A DNA stretch of 64,000 nucleotides from Flavobacterium sp. (GTDB taxonomy: Bacteria > Bacteroidota > Bacteroidia > Flavobacteriales > Flavobacteriaceae). The stretch lies in the NCBI RefSeq assembly GCF_004295795.1, contig NZ_SEBR01000002.1, positions 204,280-268,279 of the forward strand. Direction: 5' to 3'. The position numbers and the translations under genes were made by a program. Each line of letters begins with the position of its first letter. Position 1 is the stretch's first letter. A model generated the notes under the pieces. It was not told where the DNA came from, did not search any database, and saw nothing but the letters and a program-made list of their open reading frames with translations. Shown here piece after piece: positions 35,497 through 53,547 of this stretch.

Positions 35497-36094
35497 CTTC
35501 GGACACTGAAATCCCGTAAATCGCCTCGAAAGCCGTCAGCGTTTCCGTGGCGTTTCTTTTTCTGACCGAAAACGTGATCTCGCAGTCAAGCTCCATTTTT
35601 TGAGAGACGACATTGAGGTTTTTCTCGCGGATTATCCGCATGACCTTATTGATGTCTTTGTATTCGAAAGCGACCATATAATATAGGTCGATCGTTTTTT
35701 CGACGATTTCGCTGGCTTCGAGTGCCATTTGTGCCGATGTTCGGTATGCCGAAATCAGTCCGCCGACGCCCAGTTTCACGCCTCCGAAAAAGCGCACGGA
35801 AACCACCAGGACATTGGTGACGCCAAACGACTGGATTTGCCCGTAAATGGGCATTCCGGCCGAGTTTGACGGTTCGCCGTCGTCGTTGGCGCGGTATTGG
35901 ATTTTGTCGGTTCCGATCTGGAAAGCGTAGCAAAAATGCACCGCGCCGACGTGTTGCCTGCGCAGTTGTTCCAAGTGCATTTTGACTTGTTCCTCTGTAT
36001 TTACCGGGAAAGCGTATCCGAAAAACTTGCTGCCTTTTTCCTTGTAAAGCGTTTCTTCGGATGGATTTTCAAGCGTTTTGTAAGTGTCGTCCAA
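35492..36094 (-). CDS. yigZ: YigZ/IMPACT family protein
   Basis: EKGSKFFG, HFCYA, NDDGEPSNSAG, VRFFGGVKLGVGGL; TTG start. Confidence 0.92.
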   Translation of the reverse strand: MDDTYKTLENPSEETLYKEKGSKFFGYAFPVNTEEQVKMHLEQLRRQHVGAVHFCYAFQIGTDKIQYRANDDGEPSNSAGMPIYGQIQSFGVTNVLVVSVRFFGGVKLGVGGLISAYRTSAQMALEASEIVEKTIDLYYMVAFEYKDINKVMRIIREKNLNVVSQKMELDCEITFSVRKRNATETLTAFEAIYGISVSEV

Positions 36095-36703
36095 TTAAGC
36101 GGTCTCGAATTTTTTCTCGAACAAATGTACGACATCTTCTTCACCGACTTTTAGGTTCCAAACCTGAAGTCCGGCCTGGCGCGCCGCATCGGTGTTTTCT
36201 TTTTTGTCGTCTATGAACAAGGTTCGTTTTGGCGACAGGTCGTGTTTGCGGATGATGTAGTTGAAAATCTCGACATCTGGTTTTCGCATGCCCATTTCGT
36301 AGGAATAGTAGACTTTCTCGAAACAGCGGTAAAAGTCGCCCGCAAAGGTCGATCCGACGAGTTCTTCAAAATGTGCGATGTGGATCTGGTCAGTGTTCGT
36401 GAGCAGGAACATTCTGTAACGCCCGCAAAGCATCTGAAGGAATTCCAACCTTTCAAGCGGAAAATCGCCTATCACCAAGTTCCACGCGGCGCGGATTTCT
36501 TCGACTTTTGCGTTTGGGATGAATTTTGAAAATCCGTCGAGAAACGATTTTTCCGAAATATGGCCTTTCTCGAATTTGTCGTTGAGCTCGACGAGTTCGT
36601 CATTTGGGCCGTCGATCCCGAGTTTGCGAAAAGCCTCAACCGAAGCTTCCTTGTCAAGATTCACGAAAATGTCGCCAAAGTCAAAGATTATGGTGTTGAT
36701 CAT
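36095..36703 (-). CDS. HAD-family phosphatase (YihX-like)
   Basis: FDFGD, LTNT, KPD, FIDD. Confidence 0.9.
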   Translation of the reverse strand: MINTIIFDFGDIFVNLDKEASVEAFRKLGIDGPNDELVELNDKFEKGHISEKSFLDGFSKFIPNAKVEEIRAAWNLVIGDFPLERLEFLQMLCGRYRMFLLTNTDQIHIAHFEELVGSTFAGDFYRCFEKVYYSYEMGMRKPDVEIFNYIIRKHDLSPKRTLFIDDKKENTDAARQAGLQVWNLKVGEEDVVHLFEKKFETA

Positions 36704-43561: not shown

Positions 43562-46500
43562 TTATTTGATTACGACTTTTTGCGTCATCAGGCCGCCGGT
43601 TGTCTCGATTTTCACGAGGTACGTTCCGGCGCTAACGTTTTTGAGCTTGATCTGGATGTTGTCCTGATCCTGGCTTTCGACGTCGTACGAATTCACGCTT
43701 TGTCCCAACATGTTCATCAACGTGGCTTTTTTGACCGTCATGTCGTCGAACATATTTCGGATCGAAAGCACTGAGGTTTTCTCGTCATAAGCGATCTTGA
43801 GGTTTGCGCTCGCCGTTTTCTCGTCCGCTTTGAGCAATTGGGCTTGCTGCAGGAATCTCAGATAGAATCGGCCTTCGTGCGTTCCCGCCGGAAGGTTCAG
43901 CGCAAAACTCTCGTCTCTGAGGTCGTGGTACAATCCGGTTTGGTTGTCAAAGATATAGATTGGTTGGTCTGCGTCGAAATTCTCGGTTCCGTCAAGGCTG
44001 AATTTGACGTTTCCGGCTGCGGCCGCTTTCACTTCCAACGGATAACTGCTCGTCGCATCGAAGTAGCCGTCGCCTTGGATAATAGCTCTGTGATCGCCGA
44101 TTCGGAACACCATTTCGTCCGGGTTCGAATCGTAGTTGTCGGCATCGTATCCGAAATCAAAATCCGGAGTCGCCAAGTCATCCATGAATCCGATCAAAAC
44201 CTGACGGTGGTAGCCATTGGCATAATCGTATCCGATCCTGATTTTTGGATAAGCGACTTCTGATGGAATCGCGTCTTCCGCATTGCTGTTGTCGCCAACT
44301 GGAGCATTGCCCGACGGTCTGAACATCGCATAAGAAAGCGCATTGTCTTCTTTGATAAAAGCGCGTTGCGTGTTCTTGAACCTGATCGTTCCGCCAGTCG
44401 CAGTCGCAGTCACGAAGAAACCTTGTCCCACCGGAATGTAGCGTTTTGGCGTTCTGGTACTCGATCCTAGGCCACTCGCGTCCGGATGCGCTACCGGAGG
44501 CGTTCCTCCAACCAAAGTGTAAGTTGCATAACCGCCTTGGTAGAAAGCCGTGACGTGCGTCGTGTTAGTTCCGAAGTGTTCCCAGAAATGGATCGCTCCG
44601 TTGATTACACCGGCGTTGTCGGTAATGAAGGCATTTGCGTCCATGGCCGATGCGTATGGGTTACCGGCGAGGTTGAGCATGTTAGGTGCGATCGGCAAAG
44701 TGATCAATCCGTTGTAAGGTTTTCCCCTGAACGTGAAATTCTGGCTTTCCGAAGGAGCGTTGCTGCCTTTGAGCGTGTAACCCTGACCCGGAGTCAATTG
44801 GCCGTTTTGTCCAACCGCAACCCAGTTCGCATAATTGTTCGAGGTGTTCTGGAATTTGTAGATCCAATAACTGCTCAATGTGATTGGGCTCGTGGCCGAT
44901 GAATTTACGCCTGTCGTCCAGTTCATGTTGAGTGGATTGGCCGCGTTCGTTCCGTCTTTCATCACACCCGAAACCGTGTAATTGTTGTTGTTCGTGGCGG
45001 CATTTATCGCGCCTACCGGAGAAGACCAATAGTTGTAATTGAACCTGTTGGTCGTTCCTTGCTGGTCTTTTTCCAAATAACCTGCGCTCGTGGCATCCAA
45101 ATCGCTGAACTCGCCCTGAACCAATTGGGACTTGCCCTGAAGATCGAGGATTCCGTCGAGCTTGAGCCACCAATTGTTCTCGAGTTTGTTGTTATTGTTG
45201 AGGTTGACGCGCACGCCAGGAAGGATTCTCATACCCAAACCGGTAGTGTTTTGCGTGAGGTTGATGTTGTGGCGCACGTCGACTATAGAATAATTGTAGG
45301 TGTAAATGTCGGCTCCGTTCACGAAATTGTTTTGGCTTACCGCCGTTTCGATGCTCGAAGACTGCGTGGTCACAAAAGGCATCGGAGCCAATTGGTAGCG
45401 GATGTTCTTGACGTTGTAGATTCTCGCCAATGACGTGCTTGAACCCGCGTCGATCGCCGTCGTGATATGGTTGTCGATCACGTCGTCCTTGAAATTGTCC
45501 ATGCGGTAATAGGCAAGAACCGATGGCCAGGAAGTTCCTTCGACGTTCTTCGGAACGAATTCACCGCGAATCGCGCCCGCATTTTCACGAATTTCCTGAT
45601 AGACCATTTTCTGGAGCTGATCTGGCGTAAGCGTGACATTGAAAGCGCGTACTTCTTCTACAGATCCGTTGAAGAAATTGGCACTCGAGGCCGCATTTTT
45701 GGCGATCGTGAATTTGTTTGTGCTCGCAGCCAAAGCGCCAGATAGCGTTGCGTTAGACGATGCCGCCGAAACCGCAACCTGCGTTCCGTTCAGGTACAGT
45801 CGCAACTGTTGGGACGATTGTGTTCCGTCGAAAGTTGCCGCTACGTGATACCAACGGTTTGGTTGCAACACGTTTGTCGATCCGCCGGAAACTGTGACGC
45901 CTTTGGCCACGGTGCGCAGTTGCATGTTTGCCGGGATTCTTATCATGAAATTTTCCTGTCCGAAGACGATCGCATCCGAAGCATAGCCGGAAGGAATCTT
46001 GATCCAACCCATAATCGTCGACTGAGGAAGCGAACTCAGGATTTGGGAACCTTCGGCATAATCGTTTCGTCCGTCAAAATCGATGTACAACTTGCGCTCG
46101 AGATTTCTTGGCGAGCCCAAAGCCGTGACCGTCGTGTCGAAATTGTCGAGAATTCCGTCTTTGTCGACGTCTGTGTTTCCGTCGATTCTTCCGTCGTTGT
46201 TCGTATCGAGATTCGCATACAAACTGCCTGCGATGTCAAAAACGCCGTCGCTGTTCGAATCGAGTTGCATGTAATCAGGGTTTCCGGCTCCGTCAGTATT
46301 GGCTGCGAACGGACGCACTTGTGTTCCCCAACCAACGAATGTGTCGAACTTGTCGAGGATTCCGTCTTTGTCAGTATCGATTCCGTCTCCAAGACCGTCT
46401 CCGTTGACGTCTCCGTCTCCGTTGGAAAGTCCTGATTCGTCCACGTCGAACAAACTGTCGTTGTCGCTGTCAAGATCCTGGAAGTTGCGCACTCCGTCAC

Positions 46501-49500
46501 CGTCCGTGTCAGGCAAATTGTATGTTCCGTTTGCGATCATCGCGTCGATCGTGTCGTGAAGACCGTTTCCGTTCGCATCGACCCAAACTCCGGCTGTGAG
46601 ATCCATTCTTCCAAGTCCGCCGCTAAGGCTTGCGAAACCGGCTTCTTCGATGTCTGGAATTCCGTCGTTGTCAGAATCCAAATCGAAAACGTTGGCAACT
46701 CCGTCAGAATCGCGGTCACAATAGGTTTGCTTGATCACGATGTCGTCGAGCGCAAGGTCGTTTCCGTTTCCGCCCGGAGCGTTGTTTTTGAATCTGATGA
46801 TGAACGAAGTCACGTTCCCGAGGTTGACACTCGTCGAATATTGTCTCCATTGGCTGTCAGTGCAGCTATTGTCGCCGGTTCCGCTGGTTCCGCAACGCCC
46901 GATGTCGCCCGTGTTGTAACTTGTGATAAGCGTTCCTGTCGTTGTAAGGAATTCTACGGTGATGTTCGGTTTGATCGTTCCGTTGTAAACGCTTGAAGAA
47001 AGAATGTTCAGCGCCCAAAAACTGTAGGCGATCGGCACATTTGGCATGACACCTTGAATGGTCGTCTCGTAGAAAGTTCCGGGAGCGAAACTCGCGTTGA
47101 AAACCGCCATACGCCCGAAGGTGTCGCCTGGCGTGTGATCTTCAAATCCGTTCCAGGCCAAATCGTAGTGGATGTTGTCCGGATGTCCGTAAGTCGTATT
47201 GGCAATCCTGTGTACGACGACATATTCGCCATCGTCAAGAACCGTGCTCGATTGGTAAGGACAAGCCGTAGTGTTGGCTTGCACGATTCCGTCCTCATAA
47301 CAATAAGTGGAAGTCGCACCTGGAATGTTGATGTTGATCAAGCCTTTAGTAGTTCCGGCTCCAAAAGTCTCATTGAGAAACACGTGTTCGTAAACCGAAG
47401 AAAGAGGCGAAAGTTGGCAGTTCGACTGATCGAGCGTGTCGATGATCCCGTCGTTGTCGTCATCGATGTCGATGTTGTCGGTAATTCCGTCGCCGTCAGT
47501 ATCCGGATACGTTCTTACACCAAGTCCCGTAAGGTTGAAATTGTATGGATTTTCATCGAAATCGTCGTTTACGATAAACATCGTGGCGTTCTTGATTCCG
47601 ATTGTTGTCGGATTGAAACTCACCTGAAAACTTGCGGATGCGCCTTGTGCAATCGATGCCGGCGGCGCTGCTGCGATAGAGTAGTTGGCTGCTGCGGCTC
47701 CGGAAAACGAGATCGCTCCGATGTTCAAAGGTCCGACGCCTGTGTTCGTAATCACGAATGTCGTAATGGCGGCACCTCCGTCGATGTTTACCGATCCGAA
47801 ATCTGTGTTGTCGGAAACCGAAGTTGTCGTAGTTCCGTCAGCAATCGCTACGGAATTTCCTGTCACGCCCATTTCCGGATCGTTTCCTGTTCCCACAATC
47901 GCGAAATCGTATGGATTTTCGTTCGGATCGTCATTCGGAATCACGACAGTCGCATTTCTTGCGCCGGTAGCCGACGGATCGAAGGCAATGGTGAAGTTTA
48001 CAGTCGCATTGACCGCAAGCGTCGTAACAGTCGGTTGAGTCACCGTAAAATCGCCAGCTGCCGCGCCAATGACGGTAATTGTTCCGATGTTAAGAGGCAT
48101 TGAACCGACCGATGTGTTGGCGATCGTGAAGGTCTTCGTAAGCATTCCTCCGTTGAGCAAAGTCGCCCCAAAGTTGGTATTGTCGGTCGTGCTTGGCGTC
48201 GTGTCTCCGTCAACGATGCTGTTTCCGTTTCCTAGCACGTCGATTTCCGGAGCCGTTCCGGTTCCCGAAAGCGCGAAAGTGTAAACACTGGTTATGTCGT
48301 CGCTGTTGATGGTGATGATCGCTGTCTGGTTTCCGGCCGAAGTCGGATCGAAAGTCACCGTGAAAGGAGTGGAGTTTCCTACTGGAATTGTCGTGTTGGC
48401 CGTGAATCCGCTTATCGTGAATTGTGCATTTGACGAAGTGACGCTCGAAACCGTAAGTGGATAACTTGCTCCGGTTAGGTTGTGTATGAGAAAAGTCTGG
48501 GTTGAATTCGCTGTGCCGGCGGCCGCAACCGTTCCCATGTTCGTTCCTGTGGCGGTTGAAGTTCCTGTCGTTCCCGTCGCGATCGTGTTTCCGTTTCCTC
48601 TTACGCTGATATCGGCATCGCCACCAGTTCCTCTAAGGTTGAAGTTGTAAGGGTTGTTGTCTGCATCGTTCGTGGCGAAATTGATCATCGCGTTTCTCGC
48701 ACCGACCGCGCTTGGGTTGAAAGTCACCGAGAAAATCTGGGACGCACCGCCGGCAATTGTGGCTGTGGTTGGCGTCACCGAAAAATCACCAGGATTCGTT
48801 CCCGAAAAAGTAACGCCGCTGACAGTAAGGCTGGAAGCATTCGTTGAATTCGATACGACGAATTGTTTTACGATTGTTCCCGTGGCGACGCTCATCGTTC
48901 CGAAGTCAGTGTTGTCTGAGGTGGAAATGGCTGTGTTTCCGTCGGCGATGAAAATCGAGTTTCCGGTGACGCTCATATCTGAGCCCGTTCCTGTTCCGCG
49001 AATGGCGAAAATATAAGGATTCTCGTCCGGGTCGTTGCTTGTGATCGTAACGATTGCCGATCGCGTTCCGTAATCCGAAGGATTGAACACGATGGTAAGC
49101 GTTTGAGTTGATGTGGCATTTATTGTGGCCGTTGGAGAAGCCGTGATCGTAAAGTCGGATGCGTTAGCGCCACCGATACTTACGGAGACCGACGAAAGTA
49201 CGATTCCGCCTGTGTTGTCGACTTGAAAATTCCTCGACTGCGTGCCCGAGACCACATTTATGGATCCGAAATCGGTGAAATCTGCCGTGGATGGCGTCAT
49301 GTCGTTATTCGCGATCGCCACGTTATTGCCGCGGACATTGATGTCCTGGTACCAGATTTTGATAAGTCCGTGTCCGCCTTGTCCGCCTTCGCGGTTGTTG
49401 TTTTGTCTTGATGCGCCGCCGCCACCGCCACCGGGTTGGGCACCGTTCGCGCCGTCTCCGTTTGTTGCGCTTCCTGAAATTCCCGCTCCGCCGTTTCCGC

Positions 49501-50071
49501 CGTTTGCGGGCGCTGTTGCACCAGTGGCGCTGTTGGCCGAGTTTCCGTCGGCACCGGAACCTGCAGAAGATCCGCCGCCGCCCGAGAAATAGCCTCCGAA
49601 GAAGGAGTTCGAAGAACCAGATCCGCTTCCGCCCGAATATTTGGCTGCTCCAAAAGAAGCTGCCGCCGATCCGCCCGTAGCGCCAGAATTGCTGTTGTTA
49701 GCCGCACTGTTTCCGCCTTTGGCCATGATGTTGTTGGCCGCGAGGAACCAAGTGTCTTGACCCGGATTGTTGTCGTTACTTCCCGCACCGACGCTGTAGT
49801 TGATTGTTTGACCCGGAGTTACGGTTATTGTTCTGAAGGCATACGCGCCTCCGCCTCCGCCTCCGGATTTTCCGCTGCTTCCGGTTCTGTCCCCGCCATG
49901 TCCGCCCGCGCCCCAGACCTGAACCTGGATTGAGGTGACGCCCGTCGGAACAGTAAACTGCCCAGTTCCCGGAGTGTCGATGATTTCTTGCTGTGCCTGA
50001 CCAACGAAGCCTACAAAAAGTAGGATAAGGGTCGAAAAAAGTTGTTTTTGTAGTCGCGTAATTTTATCCAT
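43562..50071 (-). CDS. ~2170-aa T9SS-secreted protein (Gly-rich N-domain, five choice-of-anchor-D-like Ig domains, TSP3-like Ca-binding repeats, LamG, type A CTD)
   Basis: Signal peptide MDKITRLQ...GQAQ; five xIxVxGN...DxTDFG units; DTDGDGITDNIDIDDDNDG repeats; WYHVAATFDG LamG motif; NMLGQ...YLVKI...KVVIK CTD. Alternative TTG start 50176. Confidence 0.9.
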   Translation of the reverse strand: MDKITRLQKQLFSTLILLFVGFVGQAQQEIIDTPGTGQFTVPTGVTSIQVQVWGAGGHGGDRTGSSGKSGGGGGGAYAFRTITVTPGQTINYSVGAGSNDNNPGQDTWFLAANNIMAKGGNSAANNSNSGATGGSAAASFGAAKYSGGSGSGSSNSFFGGYFSGGGGSSAGSGADGNSANSATGATAPANGGNGGAGISGSATNGDGANGAQPGGGGGGASRQNNNREGGQGGHGLIKIWYQDINVRGNNVAIANNDMTPSTADFTDFGSINVVSGTQSRNFQVDNTGGIVLSSVSVSIGGANASDFTITASPTATINATSTQTLTIVFNPSDYGTRSAIVTITSNDPDENPYIFAIRGTGTGSDMSVTGNSIFIADGNTAISTSDNTDFGTMSVATGTIVKQFVVSNSTNASSLTVSGVTFSGTNPGDFSVTPTTATIAGGASQIFSVTFNPSAVGARNAMINFATNDADNNPYNFNLRGTGGDADISVRGNGNTIATGTTGTSTATGTNMGTVAAAGTANSTQTFLIHNLTGASYPLTVSSVTSSNAQFTISGFTANTTIPVGNSTPFTVTFDPTSAGNQTAIITINSDDITSVYTFALSGTGTAPEIDVLGNGNSIVDGDTTPSTTDNTNFGATLLNGGMLTKTFTIANTSVGSMPLNIGTITVIGAAAGDFTVTQPTVTTLAVNATVNFTIAFDPSATGARNATVVIPNDDPNENPYDFAIVGTGNDPEMGVTGNSVAIADGTTTTSVSDNTDFGSVNIDGGAAITTFVITNTGVGPLNIGAISFSGAAAANYSIAAAPPASIAQGASASFQVSFNPTTIGIKNATMFIVNDDFDENPYNFNLTGLGVRTYPDTDGDGITDNIDIDDDNDGIIDTLDQSNCQLSPLSSVYEHVFLNETFGAGTTKGLININIPGATSTYCYEDGIVQANTTACPYQSSTVLDDGEYVVVHRIANTTYGHPDNIHYDLAWNGFEDHTPGDTFGRMAVFNASFAPGTFYETTIQGVMPNVPIAYSFWALNILSSSVYNGTIKPNITVEFLTTTGTLITSYNTGDIGRCGTSGTGDNSCTDSQWRQYSTSVNLGNVTSFIIRFKNNAPGGNGNDLALDDIVIKQTYCDRDSDGVANVFDLDSDNDGIPDIEEAGFASLSGGLGRMDLTAGVWVDANGNGLHDTIDAMIANGTYNLPDTDGDGVRNFQDLDSDNDSLFDVDESGLSNGDGDVNGDGLGDGIDTDKDGILDKFDTFVGWGTQVRPFAANTDGAGNPDYMQLDSNSDGVFDIAGSLYANLDTNNDGRIDGNTDVDKDGILDNFDTTVTALGSPRNLERKLYIDFDGRNDYAEGSQILSSLPQSTIMGWIKIPSGYASDAIVFGQENFMIRIPANMQLRTVAKGVTVSGGSTNVLQPNRWYHVAATFDGTQSSQQLRLYLNGTQVAVSAASSNATLSGALAASTNKFTIAKNAASSANFFNGSVEEVRAFNVTLTPDQLQKMVYQEIRENAGAIRGEFVPKNVEGTSWPSVLAYYRMDNFKDDVIDNHITTAIDAGSSTSLARIYNVKNIRYQLAPMPFVTTQSSSIETAVSQNNFVNGADIYTYNYSIVDVRHNINLTQNTTGLGMRILPGVRVNLNNNNKLENNWWLKLDGILDLQGKSQLVQGEFSDLDATSAGYLEKDQQGTTNRFNYNYWSSPVGAINAATNNNNYTVSGVMKDGTNAANPLNMNWTTGVNSSATSPITLSSYWIYKFQNTSNNYANWVAVGQNGQLTPGQGYTLKGSNAPSESQNFTFRGKPYNGLITLPIAPNMLNLAGNPYASAMDANAFITDNAGVINGAIHFWEHFGTNTTHVTAFYQGGYATYTLVGGTPPVAHPDASGLGSSTRTPKRYIPVGQGFFVTATATGGTIRFKNTQRAFIKEDNALSYAMFRPSGNAPVGDNSNAEDAIPSEVAYPKIRIGYDYANGYHRQVLIGFMDDLATPDFDFGYDADNYDSNPDEMVFRIGDHRAIIQGDGYFDATSSYPLEVKAAAAGNVKFSLDGTENFDADQPIYIFDNQTGLYHDLRDESFALNLPAGTHEGRFYLRFLQQAQLLKADEKTASANLKIAYDEKTSVLSIRNMFDDMTVKKATLMNMLGQSVNSYDVESQDQDNIQIKLKNVSAGTYLVKIETTGGLMTQKVVIK

Positions 50072-50452
50072 AACGCCTTTTGGTGTTTTGTCAAGTGTAG
50101 TGCGCCTGACGAGGTTAAGATTGTTTAGAATTGGTGTTGGTATGTTGTTATTGATATCCTGTTTAGGACGTGACAAAATTCGATCGTGGTACTAAACAAG
50201 TTTTGACGGTTCAAATGTAGAATTTCAGTTCAGAAAAAAAAACTTTTTAATCGATTAAATGCAATAAATATCGATGAAATGCACTTTAAAGTCCGTTTTG
50301 AGGGAATATGATTACAGATTTAAGCCGTTGAATGAGAATATACTGTTCGAAAATCACGGTTTGTAAGTAGCTAGCCGTCAGAGTCGTAGAAAATGTCGAA
50401 GCTCGATTTTGTGAGGAATTGGAAGTGTACTCGCCAACGCAGTTTGTAGGGC

Positions 50453-50488
50453 AAAAAAAATCCCGAACCTTTCTGGGTTCGGGATTTT
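50453..50488 (-). terminator. Terminator downstream of the displaced tRNA 3' end
   Basis: A8-TCCCGAACC...GGTTCGGGA-TTTT. Confidence 0.8.
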
Positions 50489-50531
50489 GTAGCGAGGACG
50501 GGAGTTGAACCCGTGACCTCAGGGTTATGAA
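50487..50531 (-). repeat. att-like copy of the tRNA-Met 3' half (45-bp direct repeat)
   Basis: TTGTAGCGAGGACGGGAGTTGAACCCGTGACCTCAGGGTTATGAA identical to 52873-52917. Confidence 0.95.
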
Positions 50532-50620
50532 CTTACACGGGTGCAATTTCTCAACGTATTTGCTGGGCTTGCAAGCGGTAAATCTTGTCAAAAAATAGCA
50601 ATCGTATGCGGATTCGTATC

Positions 50621-51220
50621 TTAGAAAATTATAATTTCATCGACCTTCGTCCATTTGTTATTCTCGATTCGTAAAATGATGTAGCGATGTAGATAACCGC
50701 CTCTGCGTTGCACAATCGCTGTTTTTCGAGTGAGATTATAGAGTGGGCGTGAAAACATTCTGGTATTTGCCGGATCATACACAGCTAATCGTTTTAACTT
50801 TGAAGAACCTTCCAGTTCTTTGATATCGAAACAAAGATTTTCCTTGAACATTGCTTCAAAATCTTGCATTGTGAAGTAATTGTCCAATTTTGAGTACAAT
50901 GCGTGGTAACGCTTTTGCGCTTCGGGATGTTTATCTAGGTTCTCAAAAAAATAAGTCGAGTCTCGCATAACCATAACGTTTGCTTTTTCAGCATTGAGAT
51001 ACCTATAATTGTAGTATTCCTGAATATCACCTATCTCGAAACATGATTTTTCAAAAGAGCTTTTTTCATTCTTGGGAATGGAAAGCAGCATAACATCAAA
51101 GTCATTTTTAGACAGACTTTGCTGAGAATAGGAAAAGCTAGAATACATGTAGGCAAAAATGGCCAGTAAAGCCTTAGTTGCAAGTTTTTGGACTTTTAGG
51201 TCCTTGAGCGGGTGATCCAT
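50621..51220 (-). CDS. Secreted hypothetical protein (~199 aa; candidate partner or immunity protein)
   Basis: Signal-peptide-like KLATKALLAIFAYMYSSFSYS|Q inside the 541-aa track ORF; start at ATG 51220 is inferred. Confidence 0.55.
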   Translation of the reverse strand: MDHPLKDLKVQKLATKALLAIFAYMYSSFSYSQQSLSKNDFDVMLLSIPKNEKSSFEKSCFEIGDIQEYYNYRYLNAEKANVMVMRDSTYFFENLDKHPEAQKRYHALYSKLDNYFTMQDFEAMFKENLCFDIKELEGSSKLKRLAVYDPANTRMFSRPLYNLTRKTAIVQRRGGYLHRYIILRIENNKWTKVDEIIIF

Positions 51221-52620
51221 ATGATGAGTTATGTGATTCGCGTTTGTAAATCCAGTCTTCGTCGTCCCGCCATTGCTGGGATTTTGTAGAAATGTTGCAC
51301 TATCGCTTAGTGTGCCATGAAACATCTTTTTTGCATAATTCAAATCTACCCCTTGGATTCCATTCTGTGCACAATATTGAACAATTTGGTTTGCGATATA
51401 ATTGTCGAAGATATAAAAATAGTTGTGGGAAGTTGCTAAAATAGCTTCCTGCTGTTGGTTAGTAGGGTTCGCAATTGCGTAAAAATTGTTGAAATCGGTA
51501 ACTAAATTTGCGGCAGCTGGCCAATACGTTGCTAATGTTCCATTTTTCCAGAGAATTAGCAAATATGCGTGCAGCAGCTCATGTTGTGCGGTTACAAAAA
51601 TTCCAAGATCCGTACTCGTACTTAAAAATGGATTTTTATCGAGTTGGGTTATTACATGTTTGATGCCGTCCACTACTTGCACATTCGAAGTCTCGCCGTT
51701 TACGCCGGGAGTAGTGATTTCTGCATCATTTATATAGTATTGCACATCATTTGGGACTACTAGTGTACTGTTTATAGACGCTTGTAGAGCGCCGCTACTT
51801 TCAAAGATTTGTAACACAATATTGGCATGGCAAGGCTTTAAATTTGAAACTACTTGGAGAACAGCAACCACTGGCAGATTTAAGTTGCGGGAGATTTCTA
51901 TTGCTTTTTTTACGACCGCAACCCGGTCCTGCGGATAATTGGCGGTAGTCCAAACAGGAGTGATATTGTTTATGTTGTTGTAAACGCCGTCGAGATACCT
52001 GTAAACGAAATTTGAATTCTCTCCGGGATTAGCGGCAATCCAATTGCGCAGCCAGGTGTCATTTGTGGCTCCAATTCCAATAGGTGAATTCTGCTTTAGG
52101 TTTTTTTTGCGAGTATTTGCGTAGGTTTGGGGGCTGATGTTTGATGTCGATGTATAGCCGCTTCTTCCTGGCCCTCCATTTCCAGTGGTACCACCAGTGT
52201 ATGTACCTCCTCCTCCTGCGCCATTTGTCGTGCAAACTTCAACCAAGCCTAGATACGGCTGTACGACATACTGAAAATTGCCTTGCCGCTCAAAGTGTTG
52301 TAAGACTTACTTTCATTATTGAATACAATCCCGGAATATCCCGGCTTTTGTTTGTGCTTCGAGAATCCAGCGATCAAAATAGCCTTGGTCAATTTTTTTT
52401 GGTTGTCGATAAGCGCTTGGTACTTAAATGTACAGCCATCATAGTCGAATGTTTTTAAGTCTTTAATCGTATATCCGTCAAGCGTGGGTTGCGAGAAGCT
52501 GTTAAGTTGAGCGGGATAAATGTTTTTCATGTAGTCTACTTCAGCATCCGAAGTCCAAGACTGTGCGAGGCTTGCAAGCGGGAAAAGTAAAGACAAAGCA
52601 ATTCCTTTTATAAAAAGTTA
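51174..52620 (-). pseudogene. Frameshifted secreted Gly-linker/HExxH protein
   Basis: Signal peptide ...LLFPLASLA|Q; GAGGGGTYTGGTTGNGG linker; HELLH; one extra A at 52283 and at 51283 gives a continuous frame ending PKTCN-stop; start codon not resolved. Confidence 0.55.
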
Positions 52621-52819
52621 AGTTTTTACGGTTATTATAAAATATCGCTCTGTGGTATTTCAAGTCCGGTTAGCGGACACCGCTTGCTGTTTTTGGAATT
52701 TGCAAGCGGGCAAATTTAGCCGATTTGCGGATTGCCCTTATTGTAAAATAGGAGGTATTTTCAAAATGTCAGTCTTTTCAGATCGGATTATAACGCAATA
52801 AAGCAATAATTTGCGACAT

Positions 52820-52850
52820 AAAAAAACGGGTTTGAATCTCTCCAAACCCG
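52820..52850 (-). terminator. Terminator downstream of the intact tRNA-Met
   Basis: A7-CGGGTTTG...CAAACCCG. Confidence 0.7.
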
Positions 52851-52875
52851 CATACGCCCTGCGTTTTTTAACTTG

Positions 52876-52949
52876 TAGCGAGGACGGGAGTTGAACCCGT
52901 GACCTCAGGGTTATGAATCCTGCGCTCTAACCGACTGAGCTACCTCGCC
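52876..52949 (-). tRNA. tRNA-Met (CAT), probably elongator
   Basis: GGCGAGG TAGCTCAGTCGGTTAGAGC GCAGGA TTCATAA CCCTG AGGTC ACGGG TTCAACT CCCGT CCTCGCT A; lacks initiator determinants; Ile2 identity not excluded. Confidence 0.93.
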
Positions 52950-53154: not shown

Positions 53155-53547
53155 ATGAATGTCAAAACCCGTTACGAAATAGAATTCCCTTTAAATTCCT
53201 CACCACAACTGCTTTACCAATATATTTCCACGCCTTCGGGCCTTTCTGAGTGGTTTGCCGACAATGTCAACTCTCGTGGGGAAATTTTTACATTCATTTG
53301 GAACGACAGCGAAGAAAAAGCGCGTTTGACGTCGAAAAAAACCGGTGAGAAAGTGAAATTCCGTTGGTTGGACGAAAACAATAATGATACAGATGTATTT
53401 TTCGAGCTGAGAATCCTCGAAGACGAGATCACCAAAGACGTTTCGCTGATGGTTGTCGACCACGCCGACGAAGATGAAATCGACGAAGCCAAGCAATTGT
53501 GGGAAAATCAGATTTCTGATCTCAAACACGTAATCGGTTCGGTATAG
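53155..53547 (+). CDS. START-like (SRPBCC) domain protein
   Basis: LYQYISTPSGLSEWFADNV, FTFIW, VKFRW. Confidence 0.85.
   Translation: MNVKTRYEIEFPLNSSPQLLYQYISTPSGLSEWFADNVNSRGEIFTFIWNDSEEKARLTSKKTGEKVKFRWLDENNNDTDVFFELRILEDEITKDVSLMVVDHADEDEIDEAKQLWENQISDLKHVIGSV

Follow-up and report, generated by a model that had tools for sequence, protein, structure and literature searches.

In the standard model of integration, the 3′ part of the tRNA gene is rebuilt from element DNA. For islands in tRNA genes (tDNA islands), Williams reportedly distinguished in 2002 an 'A' subsite of the element attachment site (attP), which corresponds to the anticodon loop. This subsite marks the commonest class of tDNA island, with 2083 of the 3919 islands in Islander (PMC4383910). 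Remnants of ICEs (integrative and conjugative elements) and of IMEs (integrative mobilizable elements) in Streptococcus have been defined as cis-mobilizable elements (CIMEs) (PMC5704250), and in the Bacteroidales the acquired interbacterial defence cluster AID-1 is carried by an ICE that sits in a tRNA-Lys gene (Ross et al., bioRxiv 10.1101/471110). The locus described here is a 2.4-kb islet in the tRNA-Met(CAT) gene of a Flavobacterium sp. It lies within a 64,000-nt stretch of contig NZ_SEBR01000002.1 (assembly GCF_004295795.1), referred to as the window, to which all positions refer.

The islet is probably (probability about 0.72) a decayed IME remnant, or CIME, in the tRNA-Met 3′ half, of a family that is intact in four congeneric genomes (G194, G022, G023 and G293). 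This reading is preferred because it covers the anatomy of the attachment (att) sites, the two element-derived arms with their degenerate repeats, the integrase stub, the absence of a helper integrase, the uniqueness of the locus and the damaged cargo.

The att repeat, the element arms and the integrase stub

The single tRNA gene within the window is tRNA-Met(CAT), and its 3′ half is present twice, as direct repeats identical at 45 of 45 positions (50487–50531 and 52873–52917). The whole 4.4-Mb, 49-contig genome holds only these two copies of the 45-nt repeat. On the tRNA strand, the repeat extends from the first base (T32) of the 7-nt anticodon loop (TTCATAA) to 2 nt past the tRNA 3′ end, and each copy is followed by a hairpin and T-run, with predicted folding energies of −19.7 kcal/mol (z −5.5) at 50448–50486 and −19.1 kcal/mol (z −3.3) at 52826–52851. 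The initial annotation had described a perfect 45-bp duplication bounded by the anticodon loop, a terminator downstream of each copy and an AT-richer interior, all of which hold. The interior (50532–52872, 2341 nt) has 40.2% G+C, compared with 46.6% for the genome, which places it in the 2nd percentile of genome windows of the same size, and its tetranucleotide distance is among the top 1.6% of genome windows. The features that define the two ends are as follows.

52875–52949, minus strand: intact tRNA-Met(CAT) gene (ARAGORN; Rfam tRNA, 70.7 bits)
52873–52917, minus strand: attL core, the repeat copy embedded in the tRNA gene (repeat comparison)
52778–52872, minus strand: proximal arm, element-derived, with the replacement tRNA terminator (52826–52851 plus T-run) and the invariant TTTTTTTATGTC (DNA alignment, folding)
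52778–52819, minus strand: integrase stub, ATG plus 13 codons (MSQIIALLRYNPI) and a stop (DNA alignment)
50532–50620, minus strand: distal arm, element-derived, with a degenerate arm-type repeat and the palindrome GCTTGCAAGC at 50567–50576 (match to G194 at equal spacing from the core)
50487–50531, minus strand: attR core, the displaced tRNA 3′ half, 45/45 identical to attL (repeat comparison)
50448–50486, minus strand: original host tRNA terminator, stranded past the displaced fragment, after which host DNA resumes (folding; no homology to G194 past the core)

Over a 171-nt stretch that comprises the tRNA and about 85–95 nt beyond it, G194 and the window have 82% identity. In a five-way alignment of the window with G194, G022, G023 and G293, the terminator hairpin is conserved and TTTTTTTATGTC is invariant; the ATG of TTTTTTTATGTC is the start of the integrase open reading frame (ORF) in all four islands (MSN... 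or MSK...). It was through this DNA alignment only that the integrase stub was detected. On the other side, the distal arm shares CTTGCAAGCCCAGnAAATAC with G194 at an equal spacing of 35 nt from the core, and among 401 Flavobacterium species genomes G194 has the sole other match to the distal-arm motif at the correct core distance. Similarity to the islands stops at about 52778 in the proximal arm and at about 50620 in the distal arm, the surviving IME backbone being about 95 nt of the former and about 89 nt of the latter. The DNA past the displaced copy is host-specific and has no homology to G194 beyond the core. The G194 island encodes a PF00589 integrase, which is 42% identical to that of G022, together with an OLD-family nuclease, a MobA/VirD2 relaxase and MobC/NikA; since it encodes an integrase, a relaxase and MobC/NikA, it is classed from its predicted genes as an IME.

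The intact islands carry two arm-type repeat copies in the first integrase codons and, in G194 and G022, a third in the distal arm; in G194 the three copies of the repeat (GAACACGATTT) are perfect. In the proximal arm of the window one arm repeat is deleted and the remaining one, at about 52780–52788, reads ATAATCCGATCTG as against GAACACGATTTG. The distal repeat (about 50600–50607) is degenerate, ATACGATT, also read as GCATACGATTGC. These two remaining repeats are close neither to the G194 consensus nor to one another.

No recombinase was found inside the islet, by Pfam on its ORFs, which gave no match, or by tblastn with six integrases that use this att (best E = 0.5). The absence of a recombinase had been noted in the initial annotation and stands, with the correction that 13 codons of an integrase survive at 52778–52819. 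A helper integrase for tRNA-Met elsewhere in the genome, which had also been envisaged, did not materialise. The genome, estimated to be 99.99% complete, encodes five tyrosine recombinases, two of them Xer-like and of Xer size, one beside a tRNA-Arg gene and two elsewhere. The five include no relative of the integrases that act at this att, those of G014, G022, G194 and G293 and of the phages; the best match between the two sets (E = 1e-6) is to an Xer-like protein and is confined to the catalytic domain. A whole-genome search found no other element carrying this att core. A match to TGCAAGCGG beside the tRNA-Arg integrase was dropped, as it is inside coding sequence.

The three CAT tRNAs of the genome were compared; two are the initiator and a possible tRNA-Ile2, and the tRNA at 52875–52949 may be the sole elongator tRNA-Met. 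It is adjoined by a START_2-domain gene (53155–53547), which is the same neighbour in 24 of the 24 congeneric genomes first examined, and the islet interior and left flank are unmatched in those 24 genomes. Searches of the 401 congeneric genomes, of 5.8 billion proteins, of phage and plasmid collections and of metagenome contigs found no second copy of the islet or its cargo; among the phages and plasmids the tRNA itself was the sole match. A degenerate 60-nt pattern covering the attL, attR, attB and attP junctions, run against GTDB species genomes and JGI metagenome contigs, found no allele of the locus; all its matches were to tRNA-Met loci from other species in which the A-rich tail is similar.

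The repeat might in principle have arisen by local duplication of the tRNA half or as an artefact of assembly, for which the draft state of the genome (49 contigs) is the sole argument. The locus sits midway in a 325-kb contig, however, both junctions show exact attL/attR anatomy, and the same anatomy is seen in many genomes. That the arms match integrase-bearing islands effectively refutes such an origin, which is barely credible. Decay of an integrated IME is the reading under which the cargo and the related islands are considered below.

The cargo of the islet

The initial annotation assigned a two-gene secreted module to the interior. This gene model did not survive closer comparison, which points instead to an orphan ORF followed by a truncated HExxH toxin domain and, fused to it in frame, a gene of immunity type. 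The cargo features, and two further copies of a motif of the distal arm, are as follows.

52249–52617, minus strand: ORF1, 115 aa (52249–52596) to 122 aa from stop to stop (ORF listing)
51221–52306, minus strand: putative polymorphic-toxin gene fragment, with a Gly-rich linker, a central region and a C-terminal HExxH (HELLH) domain (HMMER, alignment)
50621–51220, minus strand: immunity-like gene of 199 aa, which has a signal peptide (MDHPLKDLKVQKLATKALLAIFAYMYSSFSYSQQ) and an ATG of its own and shares the frame of the toxin fragment (HMMER, gene order)
52564–52585, plus strand: second motif copy (19/22 to TGCTGGGCTTGCAAGCGGTAAA), inside the ORF1 signal-peptide codons (repeat search)
52692–52713, same strand as the other copies: third, partial motif copy, in non-coding DNA (repeat search)

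ORF1 has a signal-peptide-like N-terminus and lacks an ATG (ATA stands at the expected start; TTG is possible). It has no homologues in 5.8 billion proteins and is either an orphan gene or a remnant. It is followed, in another frame, by a 541-aa ORF (50621–52246, minus strand). For both ORFs a word-based homologue search returned only the query itself. It was an exhaustive HMMER search that exposed a family, of 53 matching proteins including P0002, and revealed the 541-aa ORF to be composite. None of the three cargo ORFs had a significant match in Pfam, NCBIfam or PADLOC.

Residues ~110–325 of the 541-aa ORF match the C-terminal domains of proteins of 435–624 aa, and the full-length relatives inspected have lipoprotein signal peptides. 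The HExxH motif and a downstream His are invariant in 10 aligned sequences. Residues 2–129 match the middle of P0002 at 45% identity, and the C-terminus of P0002 is a Tae4 amidase domain. A shared central part with alternative C-termini (HExxH or Tae4) is, as judged from these alignments, a polymorphic toxin architecture. By motif alone, the HExxH domain suggests metallopeptidase activity. Pfam SprT-like matches to this domain were below cut-off, and the best hit in a profile search of the PDB was Spartan, at a sub-threshold E of 0.27. This lipoprotein-type polymorphic toxin family of Bacteroidota is uncharacterised and its HExxH C-terminal domain is without a Pfam model or PDB fold match; the partner family consists of ~195-aa signal-peptide proteins.

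The toxin fragment lacks the lipoprotein N-terminal domain that is present in all full-length relatives, its frame is broken from that of ORF1, and the conserved C-terminal tail with its cysteine is missing. As it also lacks a stop codon, its frame reads on into the immunity ORF, and it deviates at 17 of the 40 columns where at least eight of nine relatives agree. Because of these several lesions the toxin fragment is probably non-functional. By the usual marks of polymorphic toxins, a small gene immediately downstream is present, and a complete gene with an export N-terminus is absent from the window copy.

ORF1 was considered as the missing N-terminal domain of the toxin on a by-eye likeness, and was rejected when a hidden Markov model (HMM) of 36 family N-termini did not match it. 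The same HMM finds, at 1.9e-29, a paralogue on contig C10 of the host genome (G000), so that the host appears to have its own full-length copy of the toxin family outside the islet. This paralogue, on the minus strand in a frame from near position 127225 of C10, is an intact-looking 602-aa lipoprotein that has the N-terminal domain, a linker rich in Gly and an HEMIH motif and that ends in ...KTCL.

The immunity-like part (residues 342–541) matches free-standing proteins of ~195 aa (P0037 and P0040), and the 199-aa gene may be intact. In G301 a ~200-aa homologue of this part directly follows a full-length toxin gene (E = 4e-5 in a four-sequence database); in G311 a ~200-aa ORF occupies the same position after the toxin gene, without detectable similarity to the window protein. 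In both genomes the toxin and the ~200-aa gene form a two-gene insert among housekeeping genes. The toxin module is therefore not tied to tRNA-Met islands there, since the G301 and G311 contigs with the toxin homologues carry no att core.

The motif mentioned above, of ~22 nt (TGCTGGGCTTGCAAGCGGTAAA), lies in the distal arm at 50561–50582 and has the core TTGCAAGCGG, which contains the 10-bp palindrome GCTTGCAAGC; it is conserved in the distal arm of G194. The islet has three copies on the same strand, against 0.15 expected in the window, and the 10-mer GCTTGCAAGC has nine copies in the whole genome. That this motif is found again, on one strand, at the cargo's 5′ end (19/22) and once more further upstream raises the idea that the toxin–immunity segment entered a nearly empty att-flanked scar later, perhaps at the repeated GCTTGCAAGC motif. 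The gene-less 147-nt interval in G282:C44, described below, indicates that empty scars exist, and the toxin and ~200-aa gene of G301/G311 are a free two-gene insert without att. The motif might just as well serve the arms as an accessory protein site, as its conservation in the G194 distal arm would allow, and no recombinase or transposase is known to act at a GCTTGCAAGC-type site. Late entry is thus given only a small chance, and it would alter the history of the cargo and not the nature of the islet.

Beyond the islet, a 2204-aa secreted-protein ORF (43562–50176, minus strand), Gly-rich and with repeated Ig-like segments, starts ~310 nt past the stranded tRNA terminator. Its G+C content averages 51.6% and approaches 60% in places, well above the mean for the genome. 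Just upstream of it, an 89-nt stretch (50202–50289) has 83% identity to contig C30 of G000 (36064–36152), which is ~90 nt upstream of an ORF for a GldJ-like lipoprotein. A shorter copy is present at C18:45820, with matches in three other Flavobacterium genomes, and the stretch may be a shared promoter or leader element.

Islands and islets at tRNA-Met across Flavobacterium

Of the 401 species genomes, ~120–125 (~30%; a manual tally from a table) have at least two copies of the tRNA-Met 3′ half. A small number represent true second tRNA genes; the majority are pairs on the same strand, 2–60 kb apart, that is, islands. The displaced copy begins at TTCATAA, or 3–6 nt earlier, in every case inspected (G014, G022, G023, G024, G190, G196, G275, G293, G194, G282, G312 and two IMG/VR phages).

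The initial annotation placed the crossover at the anticodon loop. In the islet itself the crossover point is not visible, the two 45-nt copies being identical, and support comes indirectly from relatives whose two copies have diverged. In G190 the tRNA and the fragment agree over the first 13 nt only, while in G023, G220 and G275 there are compensatory T-stem differences and the first 17 nt agree. From these comparisons, strand exchange in the elements of these four genomes is predicted to fall within the first 13–17 nt, a span that covers the anticodon loop and the 3′ strand of the anticodon stem and reaches into the variable region.

Integrase-bearing islands at this site vary in size and layout. 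The 8.8-kb island of G014 encodes an integrase of 373 aa at the far end. In the 23-kb island of G022 a 449-aa integrase directly follows the tRNA, and beyond it come genes of replication type, for a type I restriction system and for large secreted proteins. Tandem islands occur in G023 and G293. Two IMG/VR viral contigs (L050 and L051) carry an attP identical to 43 nt of the tRNA-Met 3′ half, with an adjacent integrase; their attP has a terminator-like hairpin and GTAATTAC palindromes on both arms. These phages are, on the basis of their predicted genes, a further source of integrase for this att. At least three integrase lineages use the site (the G022/G194/G023/G293 group, G014 and the two phages), with little or undetectable mutual similarity.

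The site also harbours integrase-less islets. That of G024 (1.9 kb; L015, 3411–5389) has a helix-turn-helix protein and a HipA-like kinase split into N- and C-terminal ORFs, a cargo named by eye as a putative HipBA-type toxin–antitoxin, and its proximal arm matches the proximal arm of the integrase-bearing G014 island. The 3.0-kb islet of G190 encodes one TonB-dependent receptor. In G293, a 3.8-kb islet of small secreted proteins is followed in tandem by an integrase-bearing island, and G312 has one-gene units of 0.8–1.4 kb. The cargo at this att thus differs among islets, and that of the window is absent from the 401 genomes.

The most elaborate case is G282, in which the tRNA half occurs 12 times and the hairpin that follows it 14 times. 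On five of its contigs (C129, C105, C83, C8 and C158; L056, L057 and L061–L063) there are at least eight cassettes with gene sets of 1.2–9 kb. They are separated by a near-identical 34-nt left arm, the 45-nt tRNA half and the hairpin, or by another conserved left part and the same hairpin. Judged by eye from N-termini, the cassette genes include hydrolase-like, Fic-like and DinB-like genes, a nucleotidyltransferase/HEPN-like pair and others, and no PF00589 domain is encoded on the array contigs. The array arms differ from those of the window islet, and the assembly is fragmented. By analogy, the array looks like integron-style accretion at the tRNA-Met gene.

A further contig of this genome, G282:C44 (L058, 2884–3120 in tRNA orientation), carries a START_2-syntenic tRNA-Met gene and, after a gene-less interval of 147 nt, the displaced fragment. 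This att-flanked empty interval is an end point of island decay.

These findings bear on the second origin offered by the initial annotation, which had left the choice between a decayed island and a satellite mobilised in trans. The islet would then be a minimal integrase-less cassette, a circle of attP arms and cargo, moved by the integrase of a co-resident IME or phage. Such an origin would agree with the perfect identity of the core repeats and with two arms kept at about attP length. It would also suit the 0.8–3.8-kb islets with unrelated cargo in G024, G190, G293 and G312, the G282 array and the use of this att by phages and by IMEs of several integrase families. Yet the surviving start codon and 13 codons imply that the islet at one time encoded an integrase itself. 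Its arm-type repeats, where not deleted, are degenerate and mutually unlike, the toxin gene is damaged, the genome is without a cognate integrase, and neither the islet, nor its arms with the cargo, nor its proteins recur in any collection searched. Trans-mobilisation is accordingly regarded as unlikely. The initial annotation had named integrase remnants showing simple decay as the sign that would speak against a satellite, and a stub with degenerate or deleted arm repeats is what the islet holds.

On a broader scale, the tRNA-Met(CAT) att of Flavobacterium might be a capture site at which the integrases of IMEs and phages, resident or visiting, insert in trans cassettes that have no integrase and consist of attP arms with one to a few genes, and at which these pile up into integron-like arrays such as that of G282. 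This is a speculative proposal to which little weight is given. That the window islet would, under it, be a cassette delivering an orphan immunity gene, and not a dead end of decay, is an idea of equally low standing.

Descent from an IME by decay, the reading retained here, has to contend with several observations. The 45/45 identity of the displaced fragment is an argument for recent integration, despite the extensive decay elsewhere in the islet; identical repeats, a lost integrase and toxin lesions would fit an element that arrived already minimal. The arms have roughly the extent of a functional attP; from random deletion one might expect a ragged end. Mini-islets without an integrase recur in four genomes in addition to the G282 array with its uniform arms, a pattern that is hard to produce by independent decay alone, and uniform arms around unrelated cargo would come more easily from repeated capture than from ten separate decays. 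With regard to the cargo, the toxin and immunity roles are putative assignments by homology and gene order only, and an AF2 model of the HExxH domain (10-sequence alignment, pLDDT 71.5) matched nothing when compared with the PDB by Foldseek (best E = 5). The arms, the stub and the degenerate repeats nevertheless favour the decayed island.

Proposed history and comparison with known systems

The proposed history begins with a tyrosine integrase which, following established knowledge of such elements, would have joined an attP containing a copy of the tRNA 3′ half to the tRNA gene, with a crossover in or beside the anticodon loop. This would have produced, at attL, a rebuilt tRNA gene followed by the terminator of the element and, at attR, a displaced fragment followed by that of the host. 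A later deletion, which the sequence itself shows, removed the integrase from codon 14 onward together with the remaining backbone. Left between the arms, as homology suggests, would be the orphan ORF, the truncated HExxH polymorphic-toxin gene and its cognate immunity-like gene. The immunity gene may still guard the cell against the toxins of relatives, which would explain its retention. The islet would now be stranded because the genome has no cognate integrase, and would be movable only if an incoming element or phage with the same att integrated next to it and the two were excised together.

As such, the islet is an ordinary decay product of the CIME type. Recognising it explains why the tRNA half is present twice and amends the gene model of the cargo; island finders that require an integrase would miss it. 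The islet itself is modest in scope, and the genus-wide pattern reaches somewhat further: the tRNA-Met gene is an integration hot spot in Flavobacterium, and the recurring mini-islets, with toxin–antitoxin, receptor or toxin–immunity cargo, offer a test bed for the mobilisation of remnants. If an orphan immunity gene has been retained on decayed mobile DNA, it would be a parallel to the acquired interbacterial defence of gut Bacteroidales.

The islet is closest to the islands of G022, G023 and G293 and to the G194 IME, with which it shares the att core and the proximal arm with the integrase start, as well as a homologous distal arm. It differs from them in lacking their tyrosine integrase of ~400–450 aa and their other cargo of 14–30 kb; G194 also has the relaxase and MobC, and G022 an excisionase-sized ORF, neither of which is in the islet. 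Like the CIMEs of Streptococcus, the islet is flanked by attL and attR, is without integration and transfer genes and would be derived from an IME by decay, and tandem accretion with integrase-bearing elements at the same att is seen in its relatives G293 and G023. Unlike them, it is only 2.4 kb long and lies in a tRNA-Met gene of Flavobacterium and not in a streptococcus; its arm-type sites are degenerate and its genome has no helper, so that cis-mobilisation is putative.

With the tDNA islands of Islander the islet has in common an intact tRNA gene and a displaced 3′ fragment in direct orientation, a block of identity that starts at the anticodon loop, and a tRNA whose 3′ part is restored and followed by element DNA. 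The definition of such islands requires an integrase inside, whereas the islet keeps a 13-codon stub.

The comparison with AID-1 and with the recombinase-associated clusters (rAID-1) concerns the cargo. In both cases an immunity-like gene is kept beside a truncated toxin fragment on acquired, GC-skewed DNA. The islet differs in being a single module and not an array, in having no XerD-family recombinase in or beside it, and in a toxin family marked by lipoprotein signal peptides and not by markers of the type VI secretion system; protection by its immunity-like gene is putative.

Finally, the islet shares with integron cassettes and with clusters of attC sites lacking integron integrases (CALINs) a short, mostly promoter-less cargo between recombination sites and without its own recombinase. 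The window islet is one unit with no integrase nearby, and its site is a tRNA 3′ half with lambda-type arms in place of an attC hairpin; it is the G282 array that resembles these systems.

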